From a virus: a stretch of 13,355 nt of DNA. Every line of letters starts with the position of its first letter. Position 1 is the first letter of the stretch. The notes beneath the pieces were generated by a model, which was given only the letters and a program-made list of their open reading frames with translations, was not told where the DNA came from and did not search any database. The position numbers and the translations under genes are program-made. Shown here in pieces: positions 1 to 13,355 of this stretch. The DNA is taken from the UHGV virus genome UHGV-1987395; one strand, 5' to 3'.

Positions 1-1
1 A

Positions 2-346
2 GATGAGCACGGTTATCCGATTCTGACAAGTGATGAGATGAACGCCAAATACAAAGGGATTCAGGCAACATTTAAGGATCGGAAGAGCATTAAACTCTCT
101 GAATTGCGAGATGCATTTTACGGGCCGGAGGTGATGGATAAAATTAAAGGCACCGTTGAGGGTAGAATCTGGAAAGAAGATGATTATTGGCATTTAACAG
201 AACAGGCCCTTAAGGTGGCTCAACATGTAGCTAAAAGAGGTAAAACAATTATCATCGATTATATTAGTCATGGCTATGATGCCCCGAAAGAAAGATTGTG
301 GAACAACTGCAAGCTTGTAAAAGGCGAATTAACCATTACAAAATAA
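2..346 (+). CDS. hypothetical protein, 5'-truncated at window edge
   Basis: Frame is open from position 2 to the TAA at 344-346; the first in-window ATG is at 38. No family recognised. Confidence 0.4.
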   Translation, partial: DEHGYPILTSDEMNAKYKGIQATFKDRKSIKLSELRDAFYGPEVMDKIKGTVEGRIWKEDDYWHLTEQALKVAQHVAKRGKTIIIDYISHGYDAPKERLWNNCKLVKGELTITK

Positions 347-2283: not shown

Positions 2284-4404
2284 ATGGCAATGAAGGAAGT
2301 AGCCAAGCTAACAAACGTTATTTACTGGGATTCTGATAAATCCTCCTGGCGAAAAGAAGTTAAACGGCTTGAGGATTATAAAAAATCCTGGAAGAAAGCT
2401 ACCGACGATATAGCTAAAGCGGATTTTAAATCGAATCAGGCTGTGCTCAGAACACAAAGAACACGCGCTAAGGTGGAAGAGCAGATTGCCAGAGCTCAGA
2501 GGAAACAACAGGAAGCACAGAAGAAACAACGTGCTCAGGCTGTCAGCCGTCTGACCGGGGGCAATAATCCGGAGCTCTCCTCTATGCGCAAGTTCTATCA
2601 GCAGCAAGCCAGAGAGGCCGCCAGACAACAAAAACTGTTAGATCGTAGTGTTGGAGATGTTCAGCACAGAAAAGCACGTGTAGGGGCCAACAGTGCACGA
2701 ATCAGCAGTATGTTTGATGGCTCCCTGGTTGCTCAGTTCCAAAGCAGAATCCAGAGAGTTAATGCTGATTATGCTAAAGGGGCTATCAACCTGCAGACCT
2801 ATAATCAGAGGATGGCCCGACTCAGATCTGAAATGAAGATGGCAACAGCTGAAGCCGGAAAATTCCAGAGCAGACTAGATAAACTGGCATCAGGTGCCAG
2901 CAAGGTGCATGACAACCTGGGCAAAATCAACTCCACGCTGGGCAAGATAGCCATTGGCCTTACTGCCGCTGGCTGGGGTGTTCAGCGTGCTGTTAGTGGT
3001 GCTATGGGTAGCCTTGCAGATCGCAACAGTGCCTACTTCGGTTTGATGGCACAGAACAAGGATGATAAAGCCAAGACTGATCAGCAGATGGCTTTTATCA
3101 AGAACACAGCCTACACCTATGGGATGGATGAGCGGGAGATGCAAGGGGGCTACATGCGCTTTGCTGCAGCTACCCCCACCATGAAGGAATCTGATAAGCA
3201 GGCTCTCTTTGAGGCTATGGCTATTAAAGGCCGCTCAGTGGGTGCTACTGGCGAGCAACAGAACAGGGCGCTTGTTGCGGTCCAACAAATGGCTTCAAAG
3301 GGAAAAGTTATGGCGGAAGAGCTGCGGGGCCAACTGTCAGAAGCCTTTGCAGGCTCACAACAGGACTTCCAACAGGCCGCTATTGATGCCGGAATCATCA
3401 AAAATACCCAGGAATTCGATAAAGCCCTTAAAGATGGCAAAATCACCCTGGACAAACTTCTTCCCTCTCTGGTGAAAATCTGGGGTGCAGCAAAAGAAAC
3501 TAAAGCTTTTGCTGAATCCATGAAACAGCCAGAAGTAGCAATGCAGCGCATGAAAAACAGCTTTAACGAGCTGGCGATTCAGTTTATGGGTGTTGTGGAT
3601 CCTGCAGATGGCGTTATTAGCTTATCTGAATCTCTAATCTCCATCTTCGAAGACCTCACCACTGATATGGACGGCAGCGGGAGCGCGGCAAAACAGTTTG
3701 GTGAGGCAGTCGGTGCTGCCATGCGGGAGATCATGTATTGGGTAGGCTTCGCTAAGGGATATATTGAGGTCAAGGCTAAAGAGTTCGGCATGACCGGATC
3801 AGAGGTTGGCGAGCTTATCGGGAAACTGGTAGTCGGCTTAGCTGGTCTGAAAGTTATTACCACACTGCTTTCCCCTCTGACCGGATTTGTTTCACTTGTC
3901 ACTCAGCTGATAGCCTTGTTAGGTAAAATCCCTGGTATGAGCAAGCTTCTGGCTTCTGCCTCAGGTGGAACGGCAACAGGAGCAGCGGTCATCAGTGCAG
4001 GATCTAACGCTGAAAGAAGCTTCATTGATGGCAAGACGCAGGAAATGAGTAAGGAGAACTCAAAACAGGGTGCTTTGTTTGAGCTGGGAAGATTTGTCAG
4101 CAATGCTGGCGCACTGTTCACACCTGGCGGCGATACTGGTCCTTTGTTCGATCAGGTCAGAGGCTGGTTTAATAAAGGGCCAACATTGACAGTAGACACT
4201 GGCATCAGACCAACACCGACGGGTGGCATGGCTATCCAGAATGGTGGATATCAACCAGTCCAAGTAAATGTAGCCCCACAAGGTGAGATTTCCGGCAAAT
4301 GGGAGATAACCATCGATGAGGGGGGAATTGCCAGGGTAATTCAGAAGGAAGTCAGCGATCAGTTGGATTGGAAAGCCACACAGGAATCTAACCAGCTTTT
4401 CTAA
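2284..4404 (+). CDS. phage tail tape measure protein
   Basis: 706 aa; N-terminal Q/R/K/A-rich predicted coiled coil; central region (NKDDKAKTDQQMAFIKNTAYTYGMDEREMQGGYMRFAAATPTMKESDKQALFEAMAIKGRSVGATGEQQNRALVAVQQMASKG...) resembles the conserved tape-measure core domain; Gly-rich hydrophobic segment near the C-terminus. Confidence 0.7.
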   Translation: MAMKEVAKLTNVIYWDSDKSSWRKEVKRLEDYKKSWKKATDDIAKADFKSNQAVLRTQRTRAKVEEQIARAQRKQQEAQKKQRAQAVSRLTGGNNPELSSMRKFYQQQAREAARQQKLLDRSVGDVQHRKARVGANSARISSMFDGSLVAQFQSRIQRVNADYAKGAINLQTYNQRMARLRSEMKMATAEAGKFQSRLDKLASGASKVHDNLGKINSTLGKIAIGLTAAGWGVQRAVSGAMGSLADRNSAYFGLMAQNKDDKAKTDQQMAFIKNTAYTYGMDEREMQGGYMRFAAATPTMKESDKQALFEAMAIKGRSVGATGEQQNRALVAVQQMASKGKVMAEELRGQLSEAFAGSQQDFQQAAIDAGIIKNTQEFDKALKDGKITLDKLLPSLVKIWGAAKETKAFAESMKQPEVAMQRMKNSFNELAIQFMGVVDPADGVISLSESLISIFEDLTTDMDGSGSAAKQFGEAVGAAMREIMYWVGFAKGYIEVKAKEFGMTGSEVGELIGKLVVGLAGLKVITTLLSPLTGFVSLVTQLIALLGKIPGMSKLLASASGGTATGAAVISAGSNAERSFIDGKTQEMSKENSKQGALFELGRFVSNAGALFTPGGDTGPLFDQVRGWFNKGPTLTVDTGIRPTPTGGMAIQNGGYQPVQVNVAPQGEISGKWEITIDEGGIARVIQKEVSDQLDWKATQESNQLF

Positions 4405-4504
4405 TGTCCACTCTGTGGATTTGAGTTCTACTCAAACCTGCATAGCAGGCACTGATATTGTGATCAAAATCAATAAGTTAGCCTGACCGGGTAAACTCCA
4501 GGCA

Positions 4505-4537
4505 AGAAAAAAGCCCCTAAGTGTTAACAAAGGGGCT
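4505..4537 (-). terminator. candidate intrinsic terminator, minus strand
   Basis: 7-bp stem AGCCCCT (4512-4518) / AGGGGCT (4531-4537) with a 12-nt loop, followed on the minus strand by TTTTTT (plus A-run 4505-4511). Confidence 0.45.
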
Positions 4538-4957
4538 CTTCTCCGGTATCCTTTTGATGCGGGGCGAACCTGCTAACAAAAATCAACCTCTCGCGAGACT
4601 AATGTTAGCAGGTTGCCGGAAGGTAAGTCAACTCCGGTCTATAAACCTTAAAGCGACTATAAAATCGCCCCGCCAATTGTGATGATCCGACCTTTGAGGC
4701 GGGTCCGGTGCCCAGGGGGGTGCAGTGATGCACAAACCAGGCAACGATAAACAGGCTAACAGTGATAGCGGCGCTCAATCAGCGCACTAAATCCTAACCA
4801 GTCCGGGAAAGAGGCTGGCTCTATCGACCGCTCATGCACGGGACAATGCATACCTGATAAAGGATTCTCACAAGGGACCAATCGCGAGAAAAGAAGAGGA
4901 AAGGGGCTGATTTGTGGTGTATCACTACGGCCTCAAAAGACCTTCTATTGTCTTTTT

Positions 4958-5416
4958 TCAACCTCTCCCCACATTTGACCAGTATTTGATTGCACCGATC
5001 AAATCATCATAGTGGCGCATTGCATCATTGAAGCCTTTATAGCTTGCCCATTGTGGGGAAACCTTGTTATTGCTGAATTGCCCACTAATCAGGATAGTCT
5101 CCAGAATGTCGGCGTATCGCTTGCCAATTCGCTTTCTGACGGCCTCAGAGCTTCCACCCTTTACGATTGCATTAATCAGGGCTTTTGTGTGTCTCAGGCT
5201 CTCATAGAGCATTGCAGCGTGGGCAGATTCCATAAAGGAGCGCTTAGGCAGATCACCCCACCCCTCAGAGTGGATAGCTGCCAGTGTGGCGTAATTCAGG
5301 CCGCTATAGTGCTTTCCGTCATCCCAGCCAACCGCTACACCTTCCATCTGTGAGAGCTCTTTATGCAGCTTATCCATCATGCGCTTGTCTATGGTGCAAC
5401 GGACTTTCGGACTCAT
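4958..5416 (-). CDS. putative virion morphogenesis / head-tail joining protein
   Basis: 152 aa; ATGA start-stop overlap with the upstream gene; segment LAAIHSEGWGDLPKRSFMESA resembles, from memory, the motif of HK97 gp10-like head-tail joining proteins. Weak. Confidence 0.35.
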   Translation of the reverse strand: MSPKVRCTIDKRMMDKLHKELSQMEGVAVGWDDGKHYSGLNYATLAAIHSEGWGDLPKRSFMESAHAAMLYESLRHTKALINAIVKGGSSEAVRKRIGKRYADILETILISGQFSNNKVSPQWASYKGFNDAMRHYDDLIGAIKYWSNVGRG

Positions 5417-6216
5417 TTGTTGATCTCCGTGATGTCATCGAGCAACATGTTGGCCTTATCAATCATCGTTTCGTGGAACTCATTCGACACAACAGACTTA
5501 TCACCTGCGGCAATCTTTCCCGCTGCCTCTCCCTGTGCATATTCCCCGCGATGCTTAGCCCTGGTAGATTTCGTAGCAGCGTTGCCAGCGTTGCTACCCT
5601 CTTTAGCACTGTTAACAGCACCCTTTTGCTGTGTTTTATTCACCTTCTTACTGTTAGTGAAAACTCCGGCATTTTCGACCATCTTCACCTTGAAGGTGCG
5701 GAATTCTTCAAAGGTGCAATCAATAGTGATGCAGTCACCAGAGGAAGAGCTACGCTTAACTTCACATTTCGTCATGATGAAGTTCTCAAGGAGTCCGGCA
5801 TCTTCACTCACCAGGCTGACCAGCTGGCGCTTGTCTCTCATTTCCATAAGTGCCTGAACAGCGGCAGCAGGGCGCATAGATTCACGGGGATTATCTGGAT
5901 CAGTGTTCCGGTCGATGTAGTTCTCTTTCCGGATGATATAAGGGGAAGAGGTAATAATACCCGTAAAGCTGACAGATTTATCTTTAATGACGGCATGGTC
6001 TGACATGGTGGTGCCATCCTCGACCGCATAGCTCGATTTCTCAACAGGGAACGAATAGCTGACATCAGAGATAGAGTCAAAGAAGATAGCCACATTATCG
6101 GTATAGTTGAAGCCATCCATTATATTTTTGTTTTGTGAATATCCCCCACACATAACAGTGAATGCAGGAGATCTCGACTCAGCTTGTTTTGCAGCTGTCA
6201 GAGCATCACTAGCCAT
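5413..6216 (-). CDS. hypothetical protein, probable virion protein by context
   Basis: ORF 5413..6225 in the track; ATG at 6216 has GGAGG 10 nt upstream, while the ATG at 6225 sits 1 nt from the SD. In the capsid operon; no family recognised. Confidence 0.45.
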   Translation of the reverse strand: MASDALTAAKQAESRSPAFTVMCGGYSQNKNIMDGFNYTDNVAIFFDSISDVSYSFPVEKSSYAVEDGTTMSDHAVIKDKSVSFTGIITSSPYIIRKENYIDRNTDPDNPRESMRPAAAVQALMEMRDKRQLVSLVSEDAGLLENFIMTKCEVKRSSSSGDCITIDCTFEEFRTFKVKMVENAGVFTNSKKVNKTQQKGAVNSAKEGSNAGNAATKSTRAKHRGEYAQGEAAGKIAAGDKSVVSNEFHETMIDKANMLLDDITEINK

Positions 6217-6321
6217 ATTAAACATGCCTCCAAAATGAATCTTTTCGTTGCCCTGCTTAAAATCTGCAGAAAATACAGGGCAGTTATTCGTTAGAATCGC
6301 TTATAGCTCTTCCCGAGAGCG

Positions 6322-6573
6322 TTATTTTGCAAAACGATTATGGGCATTCAGGGCTTTTTTGCGGTCCTGGGCTTGTTTGCGTGCAATAAAATGTTCGAAA
6401 GTCTCGGCCCAGGTGCATTTATTATATTCACGGTATTTATGCATAGCCTGGCGGCTAACGTCATAGCAGGCGGCAAATGTGGAGATACGCAGGAATTCCG
6501 GCAGATCCTCGTCATCGATATGGATAATATCAAAAGGCACGTCGTCACGGTCGCCGTATAAAACAATTTTCAT
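6322..6573 (-). CDS. hypothetical small protein (83 aa)
   Basis: ATG at 6573 with GAGGTG 6 nt upstream; the 6582 start in the track is GTG. Lies just downstream of the post-capsid terminator hairpin. Confidence 0.4.
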   Translation of the reverse strand: MKIVLYGDRDDVPFDIIHIDDEDLPEFLRISTFAACYDVSRQAMHKYREYNKCTWAETFEHFIARKQAQDRKKALNAHNRFAK

Positions 6574-6605
6574 AAAATACACCTCAAAAACTTAAGACGG
6601 GGATA

Positions 6606-6670
6606 ACAAAAAAGGGAAGAGGGAAAGACCTATCCCCGATCTCTCACCTCTTCCCTTTGCTTTTATTTGG
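6606..6670. terminator. bidirectional intrinsic terminator/attenuator between capsid gene and downstream gene
   Basis: 9-bp stem GGGAAGAGG (6614-6622) / CCTCTTCCC (6647-6655); flanked by an A-run 6608-6613 (a T-run on the minus strand) and a T-rich tract 6656-6668 on the plus strand. Confidence 0.55.
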
Positions 6671-6686
6671 CCTTCGAAGAAGGACC

Positions 6687-7730
6687 TTATTTAGCCTTGG
6701 CTTTTGCCAGAGCAGCGGCGGCGGAGTTTTTAACACTCACTTTAACCACAACTTCGGGCATCATGTTCATGAAAGCATAAGAGGATTCAACGAAGATTTC
6801 TCGTTTGCCTCTGGACTCTTCCATATACATGAAAGCTTCACGTGCAGCGCCGTTTGCAAGCTTCAGGTTGCGAGCGCAAGGGCCGAAAAATTGAGTATAA
6901 ACGCCCACCATATCGCCTAACGCATGCGGCTGGAACTGTGGGACCAGATAAGCAGTATTCTCTGGCAGACTATCCATTTGCACCACACGCAGAGCTAAGC
7001 CCGGAATGCGGAAGGTCGGGAAGCCCGGCAGAATATCCTCAGGGAACATCAGACCTTTGTCGGTAATATTCTGATTGCCGAACAACAGCACTTTACGGAG
7101 CAGTTCATCAGTCTGAATAGCGGCGAACACCTCAGCACGGCAGAACAGGGTGAAACCACGCAGAGCGCGAACGACACCACGCTGTTTAACCTTGCTCAGT
7201 GCAACCAGGTCCTGCAGTTGTTTGAGAATATCTTGAGCTAGATCCATTTCAGAGGTGGACTGTTCCACGCCCAGCAGTTCGCACACATTCAGCTCTTTAC
7301 CCTTGGTGAGGATAATTTTGTTCTCAAAGAGAGCAAGCTGGCGTGCTTCTTCGTGGGTCTGGCGTAAGCCTTCGCCCAGTTGAATAACACGACGAGCGGT
7401 TACAGACTCTAAATTCTCTTCGGAATCTTTGCCAGGAACACGAATACCCTGCCAGTCAGAAGGATAAATAGCACTTGATGCGGCAGTGAACGCCATATCA
7501 CCCGTGCCCGTTTCACGCTCATCTGCGGTAATGGTCGCCATCTGTTCACCGTAGCGCGGATACTGACCGAAAGCGGTTTGTTTCACCTGGCGAACTTTGT
7601 CATATTCAAATTTAAAGGTATTGCACAGAGCAGTAGTGTTGAAGATATCCATTGCTGAAATAATCTGGTTATCCAGCGGGATGTCTTTAATCAAGCCACA
7701 CAGATCGCGGACTTCGAATTCTTTTTTCAT
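6687..7730 (-). CDS. phage major capsid protein (E-family-like)
   Basis: 347 aa from ATG 7730 with AAGGAGG 6 nt upstream (the 7736 start in the track is TTG); size and position directly after a decoration-like gene match the usual decoration + E-family capsid pairing; Ala/Lys-rich C-terminal tail. Confidence 0.6.
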   Translation of the reverse strand: MKKEFEVRDLCGLIKDIPLDNQIISAMDIFNTTALCNTFKFEYDKVRQVKQTAFGQYPRYGEQMATITADERETGTGDMAFTAASSAIYPSDWQGIRVPGKDSEENLESVTARRVIQLGEGLRQTHEEARQLALFENKIILTKGKELNVCELLGVEQSTSEMDLAQDILKQLQDLVALSKVKQRGVVRALRGFTLFCRAEVFAAIQTDELLRKVLLFGNQNITDKGLMFPEDILPGFPTFRIPGLALRVVQMDSLPENTAYLVPQFQPHALGDMVGVYTQFFGPCARNLKLANGAAREAFMYMEESRGKREIFVESSYAFMNMMPEVVVKVSVKNSAAAALAKAKAK

Positions 7731-7741
7731 CTCCAACCTCC

Positions 7742-8077
7742 TTATTGTGCAATTCGCAAATCGCCATTGCTGGCAGCGATAACAGCGGCTAAGCCTTCTT
7801 TATCCACGTAGGCCGGATTGATGTAGCAACCTTTGTTGGCAACAACGATAAAAGCATCACCAACCTCAGCACGTTCTACAACCAGCAGCGGAGTTTTACC
7901 GGTGTGCGTTGCTTTAACGAAGGTCTCAACCTCGCCAGCCTCAGTCACCACAACAACAGTGCCAGCCGGAATCTCAGCCTTAACTTTGTTTTTAACTTCA
8001 ACGTCGCGAATACTAAATTGCTCATCTGCGGCGTATGAAATGATGTGTCCGCGTGTGCGGATAGTCATATCTCTCAT
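7742..8077 (-). CDS. putative head decoration protein (DUF2190-like)
   Basis: 111 aa; AGGTGA 4 nt upstream of ATG; Val/Gly/Ala-rich beta-type sequence; sits directly upstream of the capsid gene, with its stop overlapping the capsid SD. Confidence 0.5.
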   Translation of the reverse strand: MRDMTIRTRGHIISYAADEQFSIRDVEVKNKVKAEIPAGTVVVVTEAGEVETFVKATHTGKTPLLVVERAEVGDAFIVVANKGCYINPAYVDKEGLAAVIAASNGDLRIAQ

Positions 8078-8567
8078 TTGATCACCTGCGATTTAAATTA
8101 ACTCCCCTCAAAGAGTTCCGGTATAACCTCTCAAACCACGACAGGCTCGGGCCGAAAAGTTATGCCGGAAATCTAAAGGGAAATTGATACAAGGAGAGGG
8201 AGATAGCCCCGCACCGTAGCCAAGCGGGGGCTATTCCACATGGGGAAACCGACAACAGTCGGATGATAGTTCACAGTATGGTTACGGTTACTAGAGAGCA
8301 CTATCACGAAAGGCACTCCCCCGAATCAGTTCAGGCTGCGGTCACATCAGCGGGGAAATACCTTTCGGGATAGCTACCCACACAGAAAACCCGCAAAAGA
8401 AAACTGTGTGGATAACTAGCCCAATAGGAGAATTAATCGACCACTCAACGATGATCAGGGTAGTGTTATTTATAAGGCGGCACCGCTACCTGGTCGCCTT
8501 TACTTTGGAGGAAAATACGGCAAATCAAGATCTTCTCAAATGATATTGATTCCATACTATACTGTAT

Positions 8568-8596
8568 ATTATATCAGTATTTACTCACATTGTCAA
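8568..8596 (-). promoter_or_regulatory. consensus sigma70 promoter reading leftward toward the capsid operon
   Basis: On the minus strand: TTGACA (plus 8596-8591), 17-nt spacer, TATAAT (plus 8573-8568). Perfect match at both hexamers with optimal spacing. Confidence 0.6.
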
Positions 8597-8750
8597 CACC
8601 TTGATTATATAAATTCTAATAATTAGCGTAGTAACGGTATTTTCAGACCTCTATCAATCCCATCAATACGTCACCCCCACCCTTTAGATGCATACATCCG
8701 ACCTACTTTGTAGGCTTGGCGTACTGCCAAGGTCGCAGCTATGCGACTCC

Positions 8751-8783
8751 TATCTATCACCACTTTATAAAGCTTGATAGATA
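8751..8783. promoter_or_regulatory. dyad-symmetric operator-like site
   Basis: TATCTATCA (8751-8759) and TGATAGATA (8775-8783) are perfect inverted repeats, concentric with an inner perfect palindrome CTTTATAAAG (8763-8772); overlaps a candidate -35 TTGATA at 8774-8779. Confidence 0.4.
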
Positions 8784-8926
8784 TCTTTTGATCAATATCA
8801 ATGTTTTCCAGAGATTTACCCGGCTATAGTTCGAATCAAGGAAGGGGAGCATTGATAGAGACACCCAAAGGGGTGACTGAAAGTCACCTGGCATAGCCAG
8901 TGAAAGCACCCAACCGAACAAACAAA

Positions 8927-8944
8927 TCAACTTCTCGCAAAAGG
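8927..8944 (+). promoter_or_regulatory. conserved 5'-UTR motif, copy 1
   Basis: TCAACTTCTCGCAAAAGG ends 8 nt before ATG 8953; near-identical to the copy at 9446-9464. Confidence 0.4.
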
Positions 8945-8952
8945 TGATAGTT

Positions 8953-9075
8953 ATGGGTATCAAGAACAGTGCCAGCGCATGGCAAAAGGCCAGGTTTCAT
9001 CACCCACACATGGTCAAGGCAATTGAGGTGGTTGGAGTTTTAGCCCTGATGTTAGCTCTGTGTGTGGAGGTGTGA
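8953..9075 (+). CDS. possible small membrane peptide (40 aa)
   Basis: AAGGTGA SD; translation MGIKNSASAWQKARFHHPHMVKAIEVVGVLALMLALCVEV has a C-terminal hydrophobic helix; preceded by the conserved TCAACTTCTCGCAAA motif. Below the track cut-off. Confidence 0.25.
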   Translation: MGIKNSASAWQKARFHHPHMVKAIEVVGVLALMLALCVEV

Positions 9076-9076
9076 G

Positions 9077-9157
9077 ATGGGTAAAGGAGGCAAAGAATTT
9101 TTAATAGGTCTGGCAGTCTTAGATTTTGTATTAATCATCATTGAGCGGAGTTTATGA
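9077..9157 (+). CDS. possible small membrane peptide (26 aa)
   Basis: GGAGGTG SD 4 nt upstream; translation MGKGGKEFLIGLAVLDFVLIIIERSL; its stop overlaps the next start as ATGA. Confidence 0.2.
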   Translation: MGKGGKEFLIGLAVLDFVLIIIERSL

Positions 9158-9414
9158 CGGGAACTAAAGATATTAAGAGACTGAGGGAAGAGCTGATAGC
9201 TGAAATTAAAGCTAAGGCAAAGCAAATGGAGATAGCCGCACAAATGGATGTAGCGGAACAGATGTACAAGATGGTTGAGGAGGGAACGCCACGACAGGTT
9301 ATAGCAAAAACCTTCGGTGTGGGGATCGCCACCGTGCACAGAAGGCTGAAAGCCTATGCCGACTACCACAATATCGAGAGAAAGGAGGATGGGAGATTTA
9401 AGAAGAATAAATAG
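9154..9414 (+). CDS. small DNA-binding protein with resolvase/invertase-type HTH
   Basis: 86 aa; charged helical N-terminus; C-terminal GTPRQVIAKTFGVGIATVHRRLK resembles, from memory, the Hin/Gin C-terminal HTH (GHPRQQLAIIFGIGVSTLYRY); no recombinase catalytic domain. Confidence 0.5.
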   Translation: MTGTKDIKRLREELIAEIKAKAKQMEIAAQMDVAEQMYKMVEEGTPRQVIAKTFGVGIATVHRRLKAYADYHNIERKEDGRFKKNK

Positions 9415-9471: not shown

Positions 9472-10059
9472 ATGAACATTAAAACTATCATTGCAGCCAT
9501 CACCATTGCCTTTAGTGCCAACACTGCAGCTATTGATGTTAATTTATTTCAGAAGATGACTTGCGAAGATAAATTAGTTGCCATGGATAAGGGGCTAGAA
9601 GCCACGCATAATGGGGAACAGTTTCATTTCTCCTTGAAGAATCTTATCTTGCCCCTGGATTCTGCCGCACAGGTATATGCAACATTGGGTAAATTTGAGA
9701 AGCCGGAAATTGACCTGCAGGGCGTGAGAGCGAAGATCACCAAAAGAAATGAAAGCATTTGTGATATAGCGGTTACGGCCCTTATGACAGATGATGAAAA
9801 AACGATTATAGCTACATGCAAAGATAGCAACGACAACGAACGATTCTTTAAGATCACCCACAACAGGCCCGTTTCTTTCTACTCTAATGCCACAATGGGC
9901 GCGGGTATGCAGTGGCTGAAGAGAGCTAAAGTAACTGAGGTTAATGCTGATGACGATTTATCCTATGAATACGGTTTTATTTCCAATTATATGGCGTGGC
10001 ACCTGAAAAAATGCGGCATCAATGGTCAGGCATACGACAATGGATTTTGGTTTTTCTAA
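9472..10059 (+). CDS. secreted/periplasmic protein of unknown function
   Basis: N-terminal signal peptide MNIKTIIAAITIAFSANTAA with an AxA-like cleavage site; AGGGG SD; followed by an intrinsic terminator at 10081-10106; ends in aromatic FWFF. Confidence 0.55.
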   Translation: MNIKTIIAAITIAFSANTAAIDVNLFQKMTCEDKLVAMDKGLEATHNGEQFHFSLKNLILPLDSAAQVYATLGKFEKPEIDLQGVRAKITKRNESICDIAVTALMTDDEKTIIATCKDSNDNERFFKITHNRPVSFYSNATMGAGMQWLKRAKVTEVNADDDLSYEYGFISNYMAWHLKKCGINGQAYDNGFWFF

Positions 10060-10164: not shown

Positions 10165-11566
10165 TTTTGGGCATTGTTGACAGTGTAAGAGAGAGGATGT
10201 AACCCTTTTTTGTAATACTAATAAAATCAATAGCTTAGCTCAATTGGCCTTTTCTCTGTTTTTGTCAAATTTAACATACCCTAAAAAACTGCAAAATCTG
10301 GCTGCAAGATTATCTGCAGCTGGATTTCTTACACCTCATTTTGTGGTATCACCCTGACTAGTTTGTGCATAAAATGAACAGTTTTTAACATTTCCTCTTC
10401 ACCTGGTAACCACACAAAAAGCTAAAAACGAGGCACAGATAATCTTAGAGGCCTGTTTTCTTGTTATCACTCTAGAAACGTCGTAGAGATGATTTTAATG
10501 AAAGATGACCTACCCTATTACACCCCTATTTTTTGTTATCACAATTGCATCCTGTGCGGTGTATGGCTATGTGCTGAAAGCGGTCTTATGTGTGGGTGTC
10601 AGAAATATCCATTAGCGGTATTAATACCCGTCGGAGATTCGTCTGAGGTGCCAGGCAGGCGCTCCCCCACCTCCCTTTTTTCTTCTAACAATTCTCAAAT
10701 ATCACACCACTGCCGACCACGTTACTACTCTGTTAATTCTTAAGCTTTGCTGTATGTTGTGCACATTATTTATTCAGGTGGCTGTACGTAAATTCTGTGC
10801 CCACTGATCATGATTTTTAAATCAGATTTTGTAGTTCGCTTTATTAGTGTAGATAAGATCTATTATGTTAAATGCAATTTTCCCAACCCTTCAAATCAAT
10901 GACTTACATGTAAGTATGCACTAACACCCCACACAGCACATTAGACGTATAGATGGCTATATCCCACATTTTTGATTGTTTTGTAGTCATTCCCCTGATC
11001 ATTTAACCAGTATAGTTTGTTCTCTGTAGACCACAAAATCGGAATTTACATCTGATTAACATAATCTGTTAGCATGATCACTATTACCCACACAACAATA
11101 ACCCCATGCAAGCCTCTTTAGGCAATTTATCGGCGTGTTGGTGTGAACAGTCTTTCATGTTCTTTATGAATTCATGACTGCAAGGAATGTATTCATTGTC
11201 CTGTGTGGGGGAAGGATGGACTGCCCCAGGGGCCATAGTTATGACACCCGGTCAACATAACTGTCGATAAAATCAACGGGTGTTGGTATGCATATTTCCC
11301 ACACATGAGAGAAAATCAAAGCAAAGAGAGAGGAGAGAGGTTTGCTAGTCAAAATAGGTCAATTGACGGCTAATACAGAGTAAAAAATCAGATGCAATCA
11401 CTCCCCCACCTGTTGGGATTTCCTACAACCCCTTTCAGTCATACTCAGGCACCACACCCCGGTAAATATTACCGCACTAACCTGTAAAGAATTTTCACAC
11501 CTGTGTGTTTATACAGTCATACTCTCCTGTTTTGCAGTCATTGCACCCATGATACACAGCCCCTAA

Positions 11567-11676
11567 CCTGTCAAAATATTTTACTACTTAGCCACTATAG
11601 CTATGCATACCTGTAAAATATTTTTACTACTACCTGTCAAAATACTTTACTACTACCTGTAAAAATATTTGACACT
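11567..11676. repeat. iteron-like 22-bp direct repeats (four copies, plus a degenerate copy at 11481-11500)
   Basis: CCTGTCAAAATATTTTACTACT (11567-11588), CCTGTAAAATATTTTTACTACT (11610-11631), CCTGTCAAAATACTTTACTACT (11633-11654), CCTGTAAAAATATTTGACACT (11656-11676); the last three are spaced 23 bp start to start. Confidence 0.6.
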
Positions 11677-11789
11677 AATAGATAAAGTAATAGACCACAC
11701 AAGATCCCCCCTAACCCCCCAGGGGGAATGGGGAGGGATCAGAGAGTGGGGAAGGTTTTCTAAGGGAAAAGCTTAACCCACAAATGAAA

Positions 11790-11818
11790 GCCTAAAGAGC
11801 ATTAGCGACTCTTTAGGC
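11790..11818. repeat. perfect 10-bp inverted repeat (hairpin or operator)
   Basis: GCCTAAAGAG (11790-11799), 9-nt spacer, CTCTTTAGGC (11809-11818); the half-site CTCTTTAGGCAAT recurs at 11114-11126. Confidence 0.5.
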
Positions 11819-12258
11819 AATATGTGTGTGGGTCACTCTGTGACTTTAGCTATACAGCTAAACCGACTACGTCGGCCTGTGTGTGGGGGTGACAATGTAT
11901 TCCATACATGACACGTCACCCAATTGTGTGTGGTCCGGCGAATGCGTCAGCATGAGGCCCACATGTGGACCGCTGCCGAAAGCTTGCCAGCGCCGGAAGG
12001 AGGCAGCAAAGAGTCTCCCGCGCGGGTGCACGCACACACATACAAAGGATACACTCATAAATCGAAAATAAGCCACCTAAATGGCCTTCTGGCTGCATTA
12101 ACTAGTGTGAGTAGTGCAATTGCATTACCTGACCTCTAAATCGCGTTAGAATCGATTTTAGAGCGCTTAAGGCAAAAAGTGCCCTCCCTTGTGGGCTTGC
12201 TTGTGTCTGCTGTGCAGGCTATGGCACCTATAGCACACCTAAATGATAATAATTCTCA

Positions 12259-12277
12259 TTGACAATTGGTTGACAAT
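12259..12277. promoter_or_regulatory. tandem TTGACAAT boxes (candidate operator or overlapping -35 elements)
   Basis: TTGACAAT at 12259-12266 and 12270-12277, 11 bp apart; a third copy at 12449-12456 forms the -35 of the downstream promoter. Confidence 0.4.
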
Positions 12278-12448
12278 GTGATAAGATTATAAATAGGGGG
12301 AGAAACAGATCCGGAGGTCAATGTGGAAATTACTGATGCAATAGCGATCATCAACCTGGCTGTACTGTGGTGCGGTGTTGCCTACATAGCCGGAGTAACT
12401 GCAATCGACAATCTTGAAGAAAAAATGATAGATAAATACAAAAAGATT

Positions 12449-12477
12449 GTTGACAATTTGACGAATGTCTGATAAAA
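12449..12477 (+). promoter_or_regulatory. sigma70-like promoter upstream of the 71-aa gene
   Basis: TTGACA (12449-12454), 17-nt spacer, TAAAAT (12472-12477). Confidence 0.5.
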
Positions 12478-12605
12478 TATAAAGCATAGGGTAATTCTCA
12501 TCATAGTGAATTTCCTTTAGTAGACTGGCGGGGGCTTGTCTTAAGTTCCCGTTTCTTTTTAATCATATATCGCACAGGTTAGTGAGCTAACAGGAGGCTT
12601 ATACT

Positions 12606-12821: not shown

Positions 12822-12835
12822 TTATGGGGGAATTA

Positions 12836-13355
12836 TGGCAAGTAATTACGGGGAAAATTTTACTCCCCTTTTTAAACGTTTCATCAAATACATTTTTAAA
12901 AATCCGATTGCAAAAACTACAACCAATAAAGAAAGATTTCACTTAAACTTGTTGGAAATGACAATTTACGGTGAGATGGCAAGTTTTAATGCTGCAGGTT
13001 GTGAAATATTTATCTCTGAACAGAGATTAGCAGACGATTATGATGTTTCAAGACCGACAGTTATTAACTCGATTAAATCTCTAGAAAATGCCGGGCTTAT
13101 TTCAATAGTTAAAAGTAAAGGCAAATCTAATCATTACAAACTGCTAATTACCCCTGATCAGCTTGGCAAGATGTGTGATGAGCAGGGTATTAAAACCTCC
13201 GACAGTGTGGGATCTAGTAAAGAGGCCCCCGATAATCAACAGGAAGCCCCAAAACAAGCCACACAGCAAGCTAAAAAGGCCGAGGTGGTGCAATTGCCTA
13301 CCCAACCTAAGAACGAGCGCAGAGAGCGCTTTAGAGACGCTGGCAAACGTGAGAA
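12836..13355 (+). CDS. winged-HTH DNA-binding protein, putative replication initiator or regulator (3'-truncated)
   Basis: Open from ATG 12836 to the window end; segment ISEQRLADDYDVSRPTVINSIKSLENAGLISIVKSKGKSNHYKLL is a classic winged-HTH; followed by a low-complexity Q/K/A/E-rich linker. Confidence 0.5.

Follow-up and report, generated by a model that had tools for sequence, protein, structure and literature searches.

A small circular Escherichia coli plasmid encoding a capsid shell and tail-core proteins related to those of Vequintavirus: a probable satellite of virulent phages

The DNA analyzed in this study, UHGV virus genome UHGV-1987395 (13,355 nucleotides [nt]; referred to as a whole as the window), contains a minus-strand gene unit at positions 8077..4958 whose composition is puzzling. 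The initial annotation, made from the letters alone, described this unit as a stripped-down capsid operon, encoding a decoration-like protein, an E-family-like capsid protein and three unknowns, with no portal, protease or terminase nearby, and attributed it to either a capsid-remodelling satellite or a degraded prophage. Which kind of element carries a capsid gene in such company? The results described below revealed that the window is a whole plasmid, and we favour, with moderate confidence, the view that it is a plasmid-borne satellite, which makes a head shell and a tail core of its own and relies on a virulent rV5-like helper (Vequintavirus; myoviruses of 137 kb) for the remainder of the virion.

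A complete replicon without portal, protease or terminase genes

The end of the window joins its start inside the gene of the replication initiator (Rep). When the last bases are joined to the first, an open reading frame (ORF) of 288 amino acids (aa) is restored, with its 5′ part at 12835..13355 and its 3′ part at 1..346 (both on the plus strand). The junction is collinear with plasmid NZ_AP045055, and nine E. coli plasmid records of 13,238-13,697 bp match the whole window at 91-97% identity; relatives were deposited as circular plasmids. The 30 kb of flanking DNA that the initial annotation wished to see inspected does not exist, since the window is a circular plasmid and not an island.

Another plasmid record, L002 (NZ_CP043822.1, 39,610 bp), is composed of three tandem copies of the 13-kb unit and also matches the window. 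The capsid and tube-initiator genes are broken in one of the three copies, and the triple unit may represent a genuine multimer or a product of misassembly.

Since the circular replicon is complete, the whole element, and not only the vicinity of the capsid gene, as had been noted at first, is devoid of portal, protease and terminase genes. None of the 16 ORFs matched such proteins in Pfam or PHROGs, and none was revealed by tblastx of the window against the rV5 genome. The same searches detected no head-tail adaptor, connector or large terminase, and no tube, sheath, baseplate or lysis genes. No significant match to a small terminase was obtained either (a 161-aa protein, confined to this plasmid family, matched only phrog_7067, at E 0.04). 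An integrase or recombinase, a head maturation protease and parA were likewise missing from the Pfam and PHROGs results, no primase or helicase was found among the ORFs of the window, and no tRNAs were found within it. An autonomous phage-plasmid, which would carry complete sets of virion, packaging and lysis genes, was rejected because the gene set is far too small.

Another way to account for such a partial gene set is that the plasmid is one segment of a multipartite phage or phage-plasmid, with the portal, protease, terminase, tube and sheath encoded by a second replicon or prophage that travels with it. The gene set does complement the missing parts, and the plasmid replicates by itself, but a search of 72,556 plasmid records for an rV5-type portal returned a single one, located in a whole Vequintavirus genome deposited as a plasmid. 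Furthermore, the other plasmid checked, that of one carrier strain, is unrelated, its first 50 kb being those of a pilus virulence plasmid, and there is no chromosomal match to the plasmid DNA in 5,426 E. coli genomes. Although co-resident prophages were not systematically surveyed, we regard the multipartite arrangement as very improbable; its bipartite form was rejected, as no partner replicon was found.

The record with the portal, CP057073.1 in PLSDB (137,565 bp), is an E. coli "plasmid" from pooled cattle faeces, whose portal protein shares 99.6% identity with rV5 gp064. Apparently the record is the genome of a Vequintavirus that was present in the bacterial isolate or was assembled together with it.

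Genes for a head shell and the core of a contractile tail

The minus-strand unit is composed of five intact ORFs arranged back to back (8077..4958), encoding proteins of 111, 349/347, 86/83, 270 and 152 aa. The second gene (6687..7736, minus strand; 349 aa, or 347 aa from the ATG at 7730) encodes a major capsid protein which is a divergent member of the lambda-E family, in agreement with the initial annotation. The protein itself gave no match in Pfam; it matched PHROG 29 (phrog_29, major head protein) at 3.7e-22, and 23 of its 26 aligned relatives matched PF03864 (Phage_cap_E; best 1.4e-58). The family profile matched solved capsid proteins (PDB) at 1e-30 to 1e-49 and Phi92_gp124, the capsid protein of the rV5 relative phi92, at 4e-48. 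Over their full lengths, the capsid protein and rV5 gp060 are 24% identical (E 9e-10). Its identity rests on the profiles, the single-sequence AlphaFold model having a pLDDT of 32.

Relatives of this protein are rare, with only 29 found among 1.84 billion representative proteins. When 50,697 phage genomes were searched at default thresholds, neither the operon (megablast) nor the capsid protein (tblastn) gave a match; weak phage matches of the capsid appeared only when E values up to 10 were allowed, and a scan of contigs with a capsid relative of 43% identity returned no matches.

The gene immediately upstream (7742..8077, minus strand) encodes a decoration (cement) protein of 111 aa, whose gpD-like fold and position next to the capsid gene bear out its earlier description. 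The three "unknowns" could also be named. Directly after the capsid gene lies that of a small helix-turn-helix (HTH) protein (6322..6582, minus strand; 86 aa, or 83 aa from an alternative start at 6573), which aligns with proteins of 53-71 aa occupying the same position in the related loci L007, L009, L010, L012, L013 and L014, and also with rV5 gp158. A counterpart immediately follows the capsid gene in every relative of this superfamily. The protein showed only weak HTH-, MerR-, Xis- and small-terminase-like matches, and a function can be suggested for it from these resemblances only.

The fourth protein (5413..6225, minus strand; 270 aa) is a tail tube initiator, or Dit-like baseplate protein. 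It matched Dit_like of Pfam at 7e-26 and phrog_5197 at 2e-107, and it is 49% identical to rV5 gp048 (E 7e-60), whose gene adjoins the tape measure gene of rV5. All of its best phage matches (49-51%) are Vequintavirus proteins, and in the BASEL phage records matched by the L012 and L013 orthologues the Vequintavirus homologue is labelled "tail tube initiator protein". The last gene of the unit (4958..5416, minus strand; 152 aa) encodes a Neck1, or tail-completion, protein, which matched phrog_222 at 8e-29 and is 45% identical to rV5 gp056 (also 152 aa; E 2e-34).

The last gene of the plus-strand operon, which is convergent with this unit, encodes a tape measure protein of 706 aa (2284..4404, plus strand). 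It matched TMP_3 of Pfam at 5e-14 and phrog_5255 at 7e-164, its best phage matches are tape measures of Vequintavirinae (27%), and tape measures of 688-700 aa are present in L012, L013 and L014. The unit is thus not the pure capsid operon proposed originally: it is a mixed head and tail-core operon, and the tape measure gene on the opposite strand belongs to the same system. Judged by homology, the products of this system are the head shell and the three proteins with which the tube of a contractile tail is started, measured and capped.

In order to judge whether these genes are functional, dN/dS (the ratio of nonsynonymous to synonymous substitution rates) was computed against four sister plasmids. 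The values were 0.06-0.20 for the decoration gene, 0.06-0.10 for the capsid gene, approximately 0.1 for the HTH gene, 0-0.05 for the tube initiator gene, 0-0.02 for Neck1 and 0.09-0.19 for the tape measure gene, and no frameshifts were found in the structural genes of these plasmids. Such values indicate that the structural genes are under purifying selection and are functional rather than decaying.

The gene order is also conserved. Contigs of 12.4-14.9 kb, some of which carry a resolvase, keep the order decoration-capsid-small HTH-tube initiator-(Neck1) with a convergent tape measure gene, at protein identities of only 30-51% (down to 30% for the capsid). Still more distant capsid relatives occur in chromosomal islands of approximately 10 kb, with an integrase and with housekeeping genes on both flanks; these islands share the decoration-capsid-HTH trio, and two of the four that were examined also encode, just upstream, a tape measure of 584-709 aa. 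A portal and a terminase are missing from every capsid relative with a readable context, and all examined members of the capsid clade are found only in satellite-like contexts. The decoration family comprises 59 clusters across Enterobacterales, with hundreds of member sequences on contigs of matching size. This family of elements is old and successful, and is not debris.

The tape-measure-like proteins of the islands (L022, 6487-8616, 709 aa; L024, 7321-9075, 584 aa) have no Pfam match on record, and may for this reason escape the exclusion of tail genes applied by satellite finders. Locus L026 (GCA_002463705.1 NTNY01000053.1, 30,105 bp; locus 13452-21041), a derivative of this plasmid, carries cargo inserted between the Neck1 and tape measure genes, namely two aminoglycoside phosphotransferase genes, a transposase gene and TetR-family genes, which has doubled the size of the plasmid.

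These data bear directly on the suggestion of a degraded prophage, or, more broadly, of a decaying phage or phage-plasmid remnant whose structural genes have no present function. The morphogenesis gene set is indeed only partial, approximately 29% of the replicon is noncoding, and the head and tail genes stand in another order than in rV5. However, dN/dS lies between 0 and 0.2 in every structural gene, with the reading frames undisturbed, the same partial set recurs in the same order at 30-50% identity, hundreds of members occupy contigs of the same size, and noncoding blocks are conserved like genes. A remnant is therefore strongly disfavoured, and is the least credible of the explanations treated here; a degraded prophage was rejected on account of the purifying selection and the conserved synteny. 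The other half of the original suggestion, a satellite, agrees with the completeness of the replicon, the selection, the synteny and the satellite-like contexts of the relatives.

As first described, the unit has a promoter and a leader of its own. The promoter (TTGACA-17-TATAAT with an extended −10 TG; 8568..8596, minus strand) agrees with the sigma-70 consensus in 12 of 12 positions and is the top-scoring site in the window, the total of promoter-like sites being no higher than in shuffled sequences; in five plasmids, 95 of 100 columns of the promoter region are invariant. The untranslated leader that follows (8078..8567, minus strand; approximately 490 nt) is highly structured, with a minimum free energy of −174.8 kcal/mol (z = −6.37; none of 100 shuffles folded as well), and contains blocks at 8174-8467 which are 83-98% invariant across the five plasmids. 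No Rfam family matches it. Structured leaders are likewise present in the distant relatives L012 and L013 (z −5.9 and −4.7, respectively); these cannot be aligned with that of the window.

A terminator-like hairpin past the operon (4865..4890, minus strand), detected by consensus scan only, lies within the spacer (4405-4957) towards which the tape measure and Neck1 genes converge. This spacer of approximately 550 nt is 95-97% invariant, is predicted to form a strong RNA structure (z = −5.05), and holds the sole Rfam match in the window, a sub-threshold one to a ctRNA (ctRNA_p42d) at 4502-4542.

Near-copies of the operon promoter occur at 12259-12287 and 12450-12478, where they flank a conserved ORF encoding a hydrophobic protein of 49 aa (12323-12472; dN/dS 0-0.09). 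Downstream of them, in the plus-strand leader and ahead of the plus-strand operon, lies a terminator-like hairpin (12527-12553), and the whole region (12259-12605) may be an attenuator.

Links to Vequintavirus and the noncoding DNA

The closest phage homologues of the tube initiator, Neck1, tape measure and capsid proteins are all Vequintavirus proteins, i.e. proteins of virulent rV5-like myoviruses, and the tube initiators of the divergent sub-families are likewise closest to this genus. The rV5 proteins gp060, gp056, gp049 and gp048 are homologous to the plasmid capsid (24%), Neck1 (45%), tape measure (27%) and tube initiator (49%), respectively, and in rV5, too, the decoration gene (gp061) is located upstream of the capsid gene. 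In the 137-kb genome of rV5 these genes are embedded among terminase, portal, sheath, tube and baseplate genes, whereas the plasmid copies are extracted, reordered and highly diverged. The two proteins that would have to dock to helper parts (tube initiator and Neck1) are both the closest to rV5 (45-49%) and the most constrained.

Two short noncoding elements are common to the plasmid and these phages. The first, of 65 nt (11963..12027), is 83-87% identical to sequences in 119 phage records; in rV5 it is located at 64822-64886, beside gp075, annotated as "replication initiation protein". Its 6-bp stem, which encloses an invariant loop of 24 nt, shows three compensatory pair changes, and the element could be a structured RNA or a DNA hairpin. 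It is present in L017 and L019 and absent from the sister plasmid NZ_AP045055, and a scan of viral contigs for its exact pattern revealed only one real extra copy.

The second element (8855..8905) is a hairpin-rich mini-insertion of approximately 50 nt with three small overlapping stem-loops. It is 90% identical to rV5 (NC_011041) 105688-105738 and 80% identical to 103488-103537, is absent from this site in four sister plasmids, and has a copy in L017 (10885-10930) inside an annotated coding sequence. Judged by this distribution, it resembles a very small mobile cassette that phage and plasmid have exchanged. The region of rV5 around one copy (NC_011041 104013-106618; 10014-12619 of locus L006) is a 2.6-kb stretch without any annotated gene, which also holds a CCACACA cluster and adjoins gp158, the homologue of the small HTH protein of the plasmid.

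The heptamer CCACACA (often CCCACACA) is present in 20 copies in the window vs 1.6 expected, mostly in noncoding DNA and mainly at 8377-9067 and 10410-11933; the sister plasmids carry 15-17 copies. In rV5, CCACACA clusters at 64.8-67.8 kb and 103.6-105.4 kb (P = 2e-6 and 6e-5), the same two regions that contain the shared elements. CCACACA is probably a protein-binding site.

A CCACACA-rich noncoding region of approximately 1 kb without any credible ORF (10255..11343) is strongly conserved: in its part 10255-11154, 87-97% of the columns are invariant across five plasmids, matching the coding genes, and a 32-column indel is present at 11155-11243. This DNA is conserved like genes while the neighbouring Rep-iteron module is swapped freely, and it is the best candidate for a cis site recognized by helper factors (of packaging, replication or transcription).

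That module consists of the rep gene and five to six iterons of 22-23 nt (11477..11677; repeat families D2 and D3, TRF period 23), a candidate plasmid origin. The initiator gave PHROG matches of the replication initiation, O-like and DnaD-like types (down to 5e-12), and is of the O-like/DnaD-like winged-helix type, with the iterons nearby. Among plasmids whose structural genes are 93-100% identical, the initiators are only 83, 48, 42 and 26% identical, and the iteron block (within 11434-12234) varies together with the rep gene. This indicates replicon swapping, which is perhaps driven by incompatibility.

Apart from the HTH protein of the structural operon, small HTH proteins are encoded at 9154-9414 and 2095-2280, and none of the three was assigned to alpA or stl. 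A 195-aa ORF (9472-10059) with a signal-peptide-like N-terminus has no family match and is only 65-67% identical in sister plasmids; its role may be accessory or one in exclusion. For the unassigned plus-strand proteins, no informative match was obtained with PADLOC or NCBIfam.

The links to Vequintavirus do not have to point to a member of this genus itself. The satellite could exploit, by the same general mechanism, a temperate or unsampled myovirus distantly related to Vequintavirus, as the identities to rV5 proteins (24-51%), the equal distance of three sub-families from Vequintavirus and the lack of a phage match of the capsid at 1e-5 would allow. On the other hand, the nucleotide matches at 83-90% identity are specific to Vequintavirus genomes, the common clustering of CCACACA points to the same genus, and no closer phage is present among the 50,697 phage records; we consider another helper to be distinctly unlikely.

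A probable satellite-plasmid and its possible helper

How does the plasmid compare with known satellites? PISP and cf-PISP are satellite-plasmids of Vibrio crassostreae (circular, 11.1 and 15.8 kb), named in 2026 (PMC13230959). Neither has tail genes; they carry a head protease, a small terminase and parA/repA, cf-PISP also a portal and terminases, and the PF03864 (capsid protein E) gene of PISP clusters with satellite and not with phage capsid genes (PMC13230959). The window resembles them as a small circular plasmid without an integrase, proposed as a satellite, and shares an E-type capsid gene with PISP. It differs in lacking the protease, small terminase, portal and terminases, in having the tape measure, tube initiator and Neck1 genes, and in its host (E. 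coli) and implied helper (a 137-kb virulent myovirus). The features by which a satellite-plasmid is recognized, an extrachromosomal circular replicon with its own replication and a satellite-type capsid gene without a full virion set, are all present.

PF03864-type genes are also carried by 356 published PICIs (PMC13230959). Proteobacterial PICIs carry such a "capsid morphogenesis" gene (PMC10085698). In the integrase-bearing islands described above, an E-family capsid gene follows that of a protein of approximately 110 aa and is followed by a small HTH gene, as in the window, and the likely purpose, satellite-specific heads, would be the same. The definition of PICIs, however, calls for an integrase, a regulator, a primase and a small terminase, whereas the window is a plasmid without an integrase, a regulator assigned to the AlpA type, a primase-replicase or a recognizable small terminase. 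Of the PICI components defined in SatelliteFinder (PMC10085698), the capsid morphogenesis gene was found, and the small HTH proteins described above, one of them with weak MerR- and Xis-like matches, might represent a regulator. SatelliteFinder treats tail genes as forbidden components for PICI and cfPICI (PMC10085698), and the window contains genes for a tape measure, a tube initiator and Neck1. Like a cfPICI, the plasmid encodes a capsid protein of its own, which would be combined with parts of the helper in chimeric particles. In contrast to it, the plasmid supplies part of the tail and lacks the head and packaging set (portal, protease, adaptor, connector, TerS, TerL and HNH) of cfPICIs, which take only tails from the helper.

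The PLE of Vibrio cholerae (helper ICP1) and the PICMI of Vibrionaceae parasitise virulent phages, as proposed here; unlike the plasmid, they are integrated islands, for which no description of capsid or tail genes was found. PLE redirects the capsid size of the helper with a scaffold. P4 (helper P2) resembles the plasmid in that it can persist in plasmid form and has a decoration protein, Psu, which stabilises satellite-sized heads. Unlike the plasmid, it usually integrates, uses the capsid of the helper with an external scaffold (Sid), and has no capsid, tape measure or tail genes. The window thus lacks defining features of each named family and is covered by the broad notion of a satellite-plasmid only.

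The favoured reading, a satellite of a virulent rV5-like phage, suggests the following course of events. In an uninfected cell the plasmid would be maintained by its O/DnaD-like initiator and iterons. Upon infection by an rV5-like (Vequintavirus) virulent myovirus, both operons, which have common promoter sequences, would be expressed, probably under control exerted at their long structured leaders. The plasmid capsid and gpD-like cement proteins would assemble on the helper portal, with the helper protease/scaffold, into a head for approximately 13 kb. The plasmid tube initiator, tape measure and Neck1 would form a tail core, completed with the tube, sheath, baseplate and fibres of the helper, and the helper terminase would package the plasmid DNA, which we infer could then be transferred to new cells. 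The plasmid would probably build its own shell instead of remodelling that of the helper; the initial idea of a capsid-remodelling satellite therefore holds for the satellite and probably not for the remodelling. A genome of 11-15 kb, such as those of P4 and the SaPIs, suffices to fill a T=4 head. The members of the present family vary little in size, which is consistent with a small head without being proof.

Another purpose can be envisaged for such genes. The plasmid could be an anti-phage decoy, whose diverged structural proteins poison virion assembly of rV5-like phages and so protect the host, with no packaging or transfer of the plasmid. The homologues are proteins critical for assembly, all from one phage group, the searches described above revealed no packaging function, the sigma-70 promoter is strong, and the matching E. 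coli plasmids are typed as non-mobilizable. Moreover, interference with tail assembly by satellite or island genes is a published strategy (PMC11364771). But a full-length capsid protein and a matching cement protein, kept together over deep divergence, exceed what a decoy would need, the tight size range of 12.4-14.9 kb fits a packaging limit, and no PADLOC defence model matched the 10 accessory or unassigned ORFs scanned. Since interference and satellite transfer can coexist, the decoy need not exclude the satellite; as a full explanation it is unlikely.

Several observations weigh against a satellite of an rV5-like helper. As suggested by the perfect sigma-70 promoter, a phage may not be required for expression, and no pac/cos site or other packaging signal was identified on the plasmid. 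The small HTH protein, three relatives of which matched phrog_606 at E 0.014, is only a weak candidate for a small terminase. The element is absent from IMG/VR (2.9 million contigs), scanned with the capsid and tube-initiator proteins. The identities to rV5 proteins are modest, and the three deeply divergent sub-families are about equidistant from Vequintavirus; the true helper may be an unsampled relative. The 65-nt element, being missing from a close sister plasmid, cannot be essential. Finally, the need of a satellite for a tape measure is puzzling; it could serve to equip satellite heads with private tails or to interfere with the tails of the helper.

As a broader proposal, to which we lend somewhat less than even weight, the plasmids and the integrated islands would together represent a hitherto unrecognized class of satellites of Enterobacterales, existing as 12-15 kb plasmids and as islands and missed by satellite finders. 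The hallmark of this class would be an own capsid shell and tape measure, the plasmid branch adding the tube initiator and neck protein, so that the satellite sets both the head size and the tail length of chimeric particles formed on a large virulent rV5-like helper. The noncoding third of the plasmid, with its CCACACA arrays and mini-elements, would capture replication, transcription or packaging factors of the helper.

In the literature searched, we found no satellite of this kind described for E. coli, and no reports on satellites of rV5-like phages or on these plasmids. If confirmed, the plasmid would be the first satellite of Vequintavirinae, the first E. coli satellite-plasmid and the first satellite with tail-core genes, as far as this literature shows. 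How do the many E. coli plasmids that have neither conjugation nor known transduction determinants move? A 2025 review raised this question and considered that some of these plasmids might be satellites; at that time a single plasmid satellite, that of an inovirus, had been proven (PMC12282955). The exclusion of tail genes by satellite finders constitutes a blind spot in the detection of such elements. This matters beyond their classification. Vequintavirinae are widely used in E. coli phage-therapy cocktails. Plasmids of this type could lower the efficacy of rV5-like therapeutic phages, and the spread of resistance in phage particles is possible, as one derivative carries aminoglycoside and tetracycline resistance cargo.

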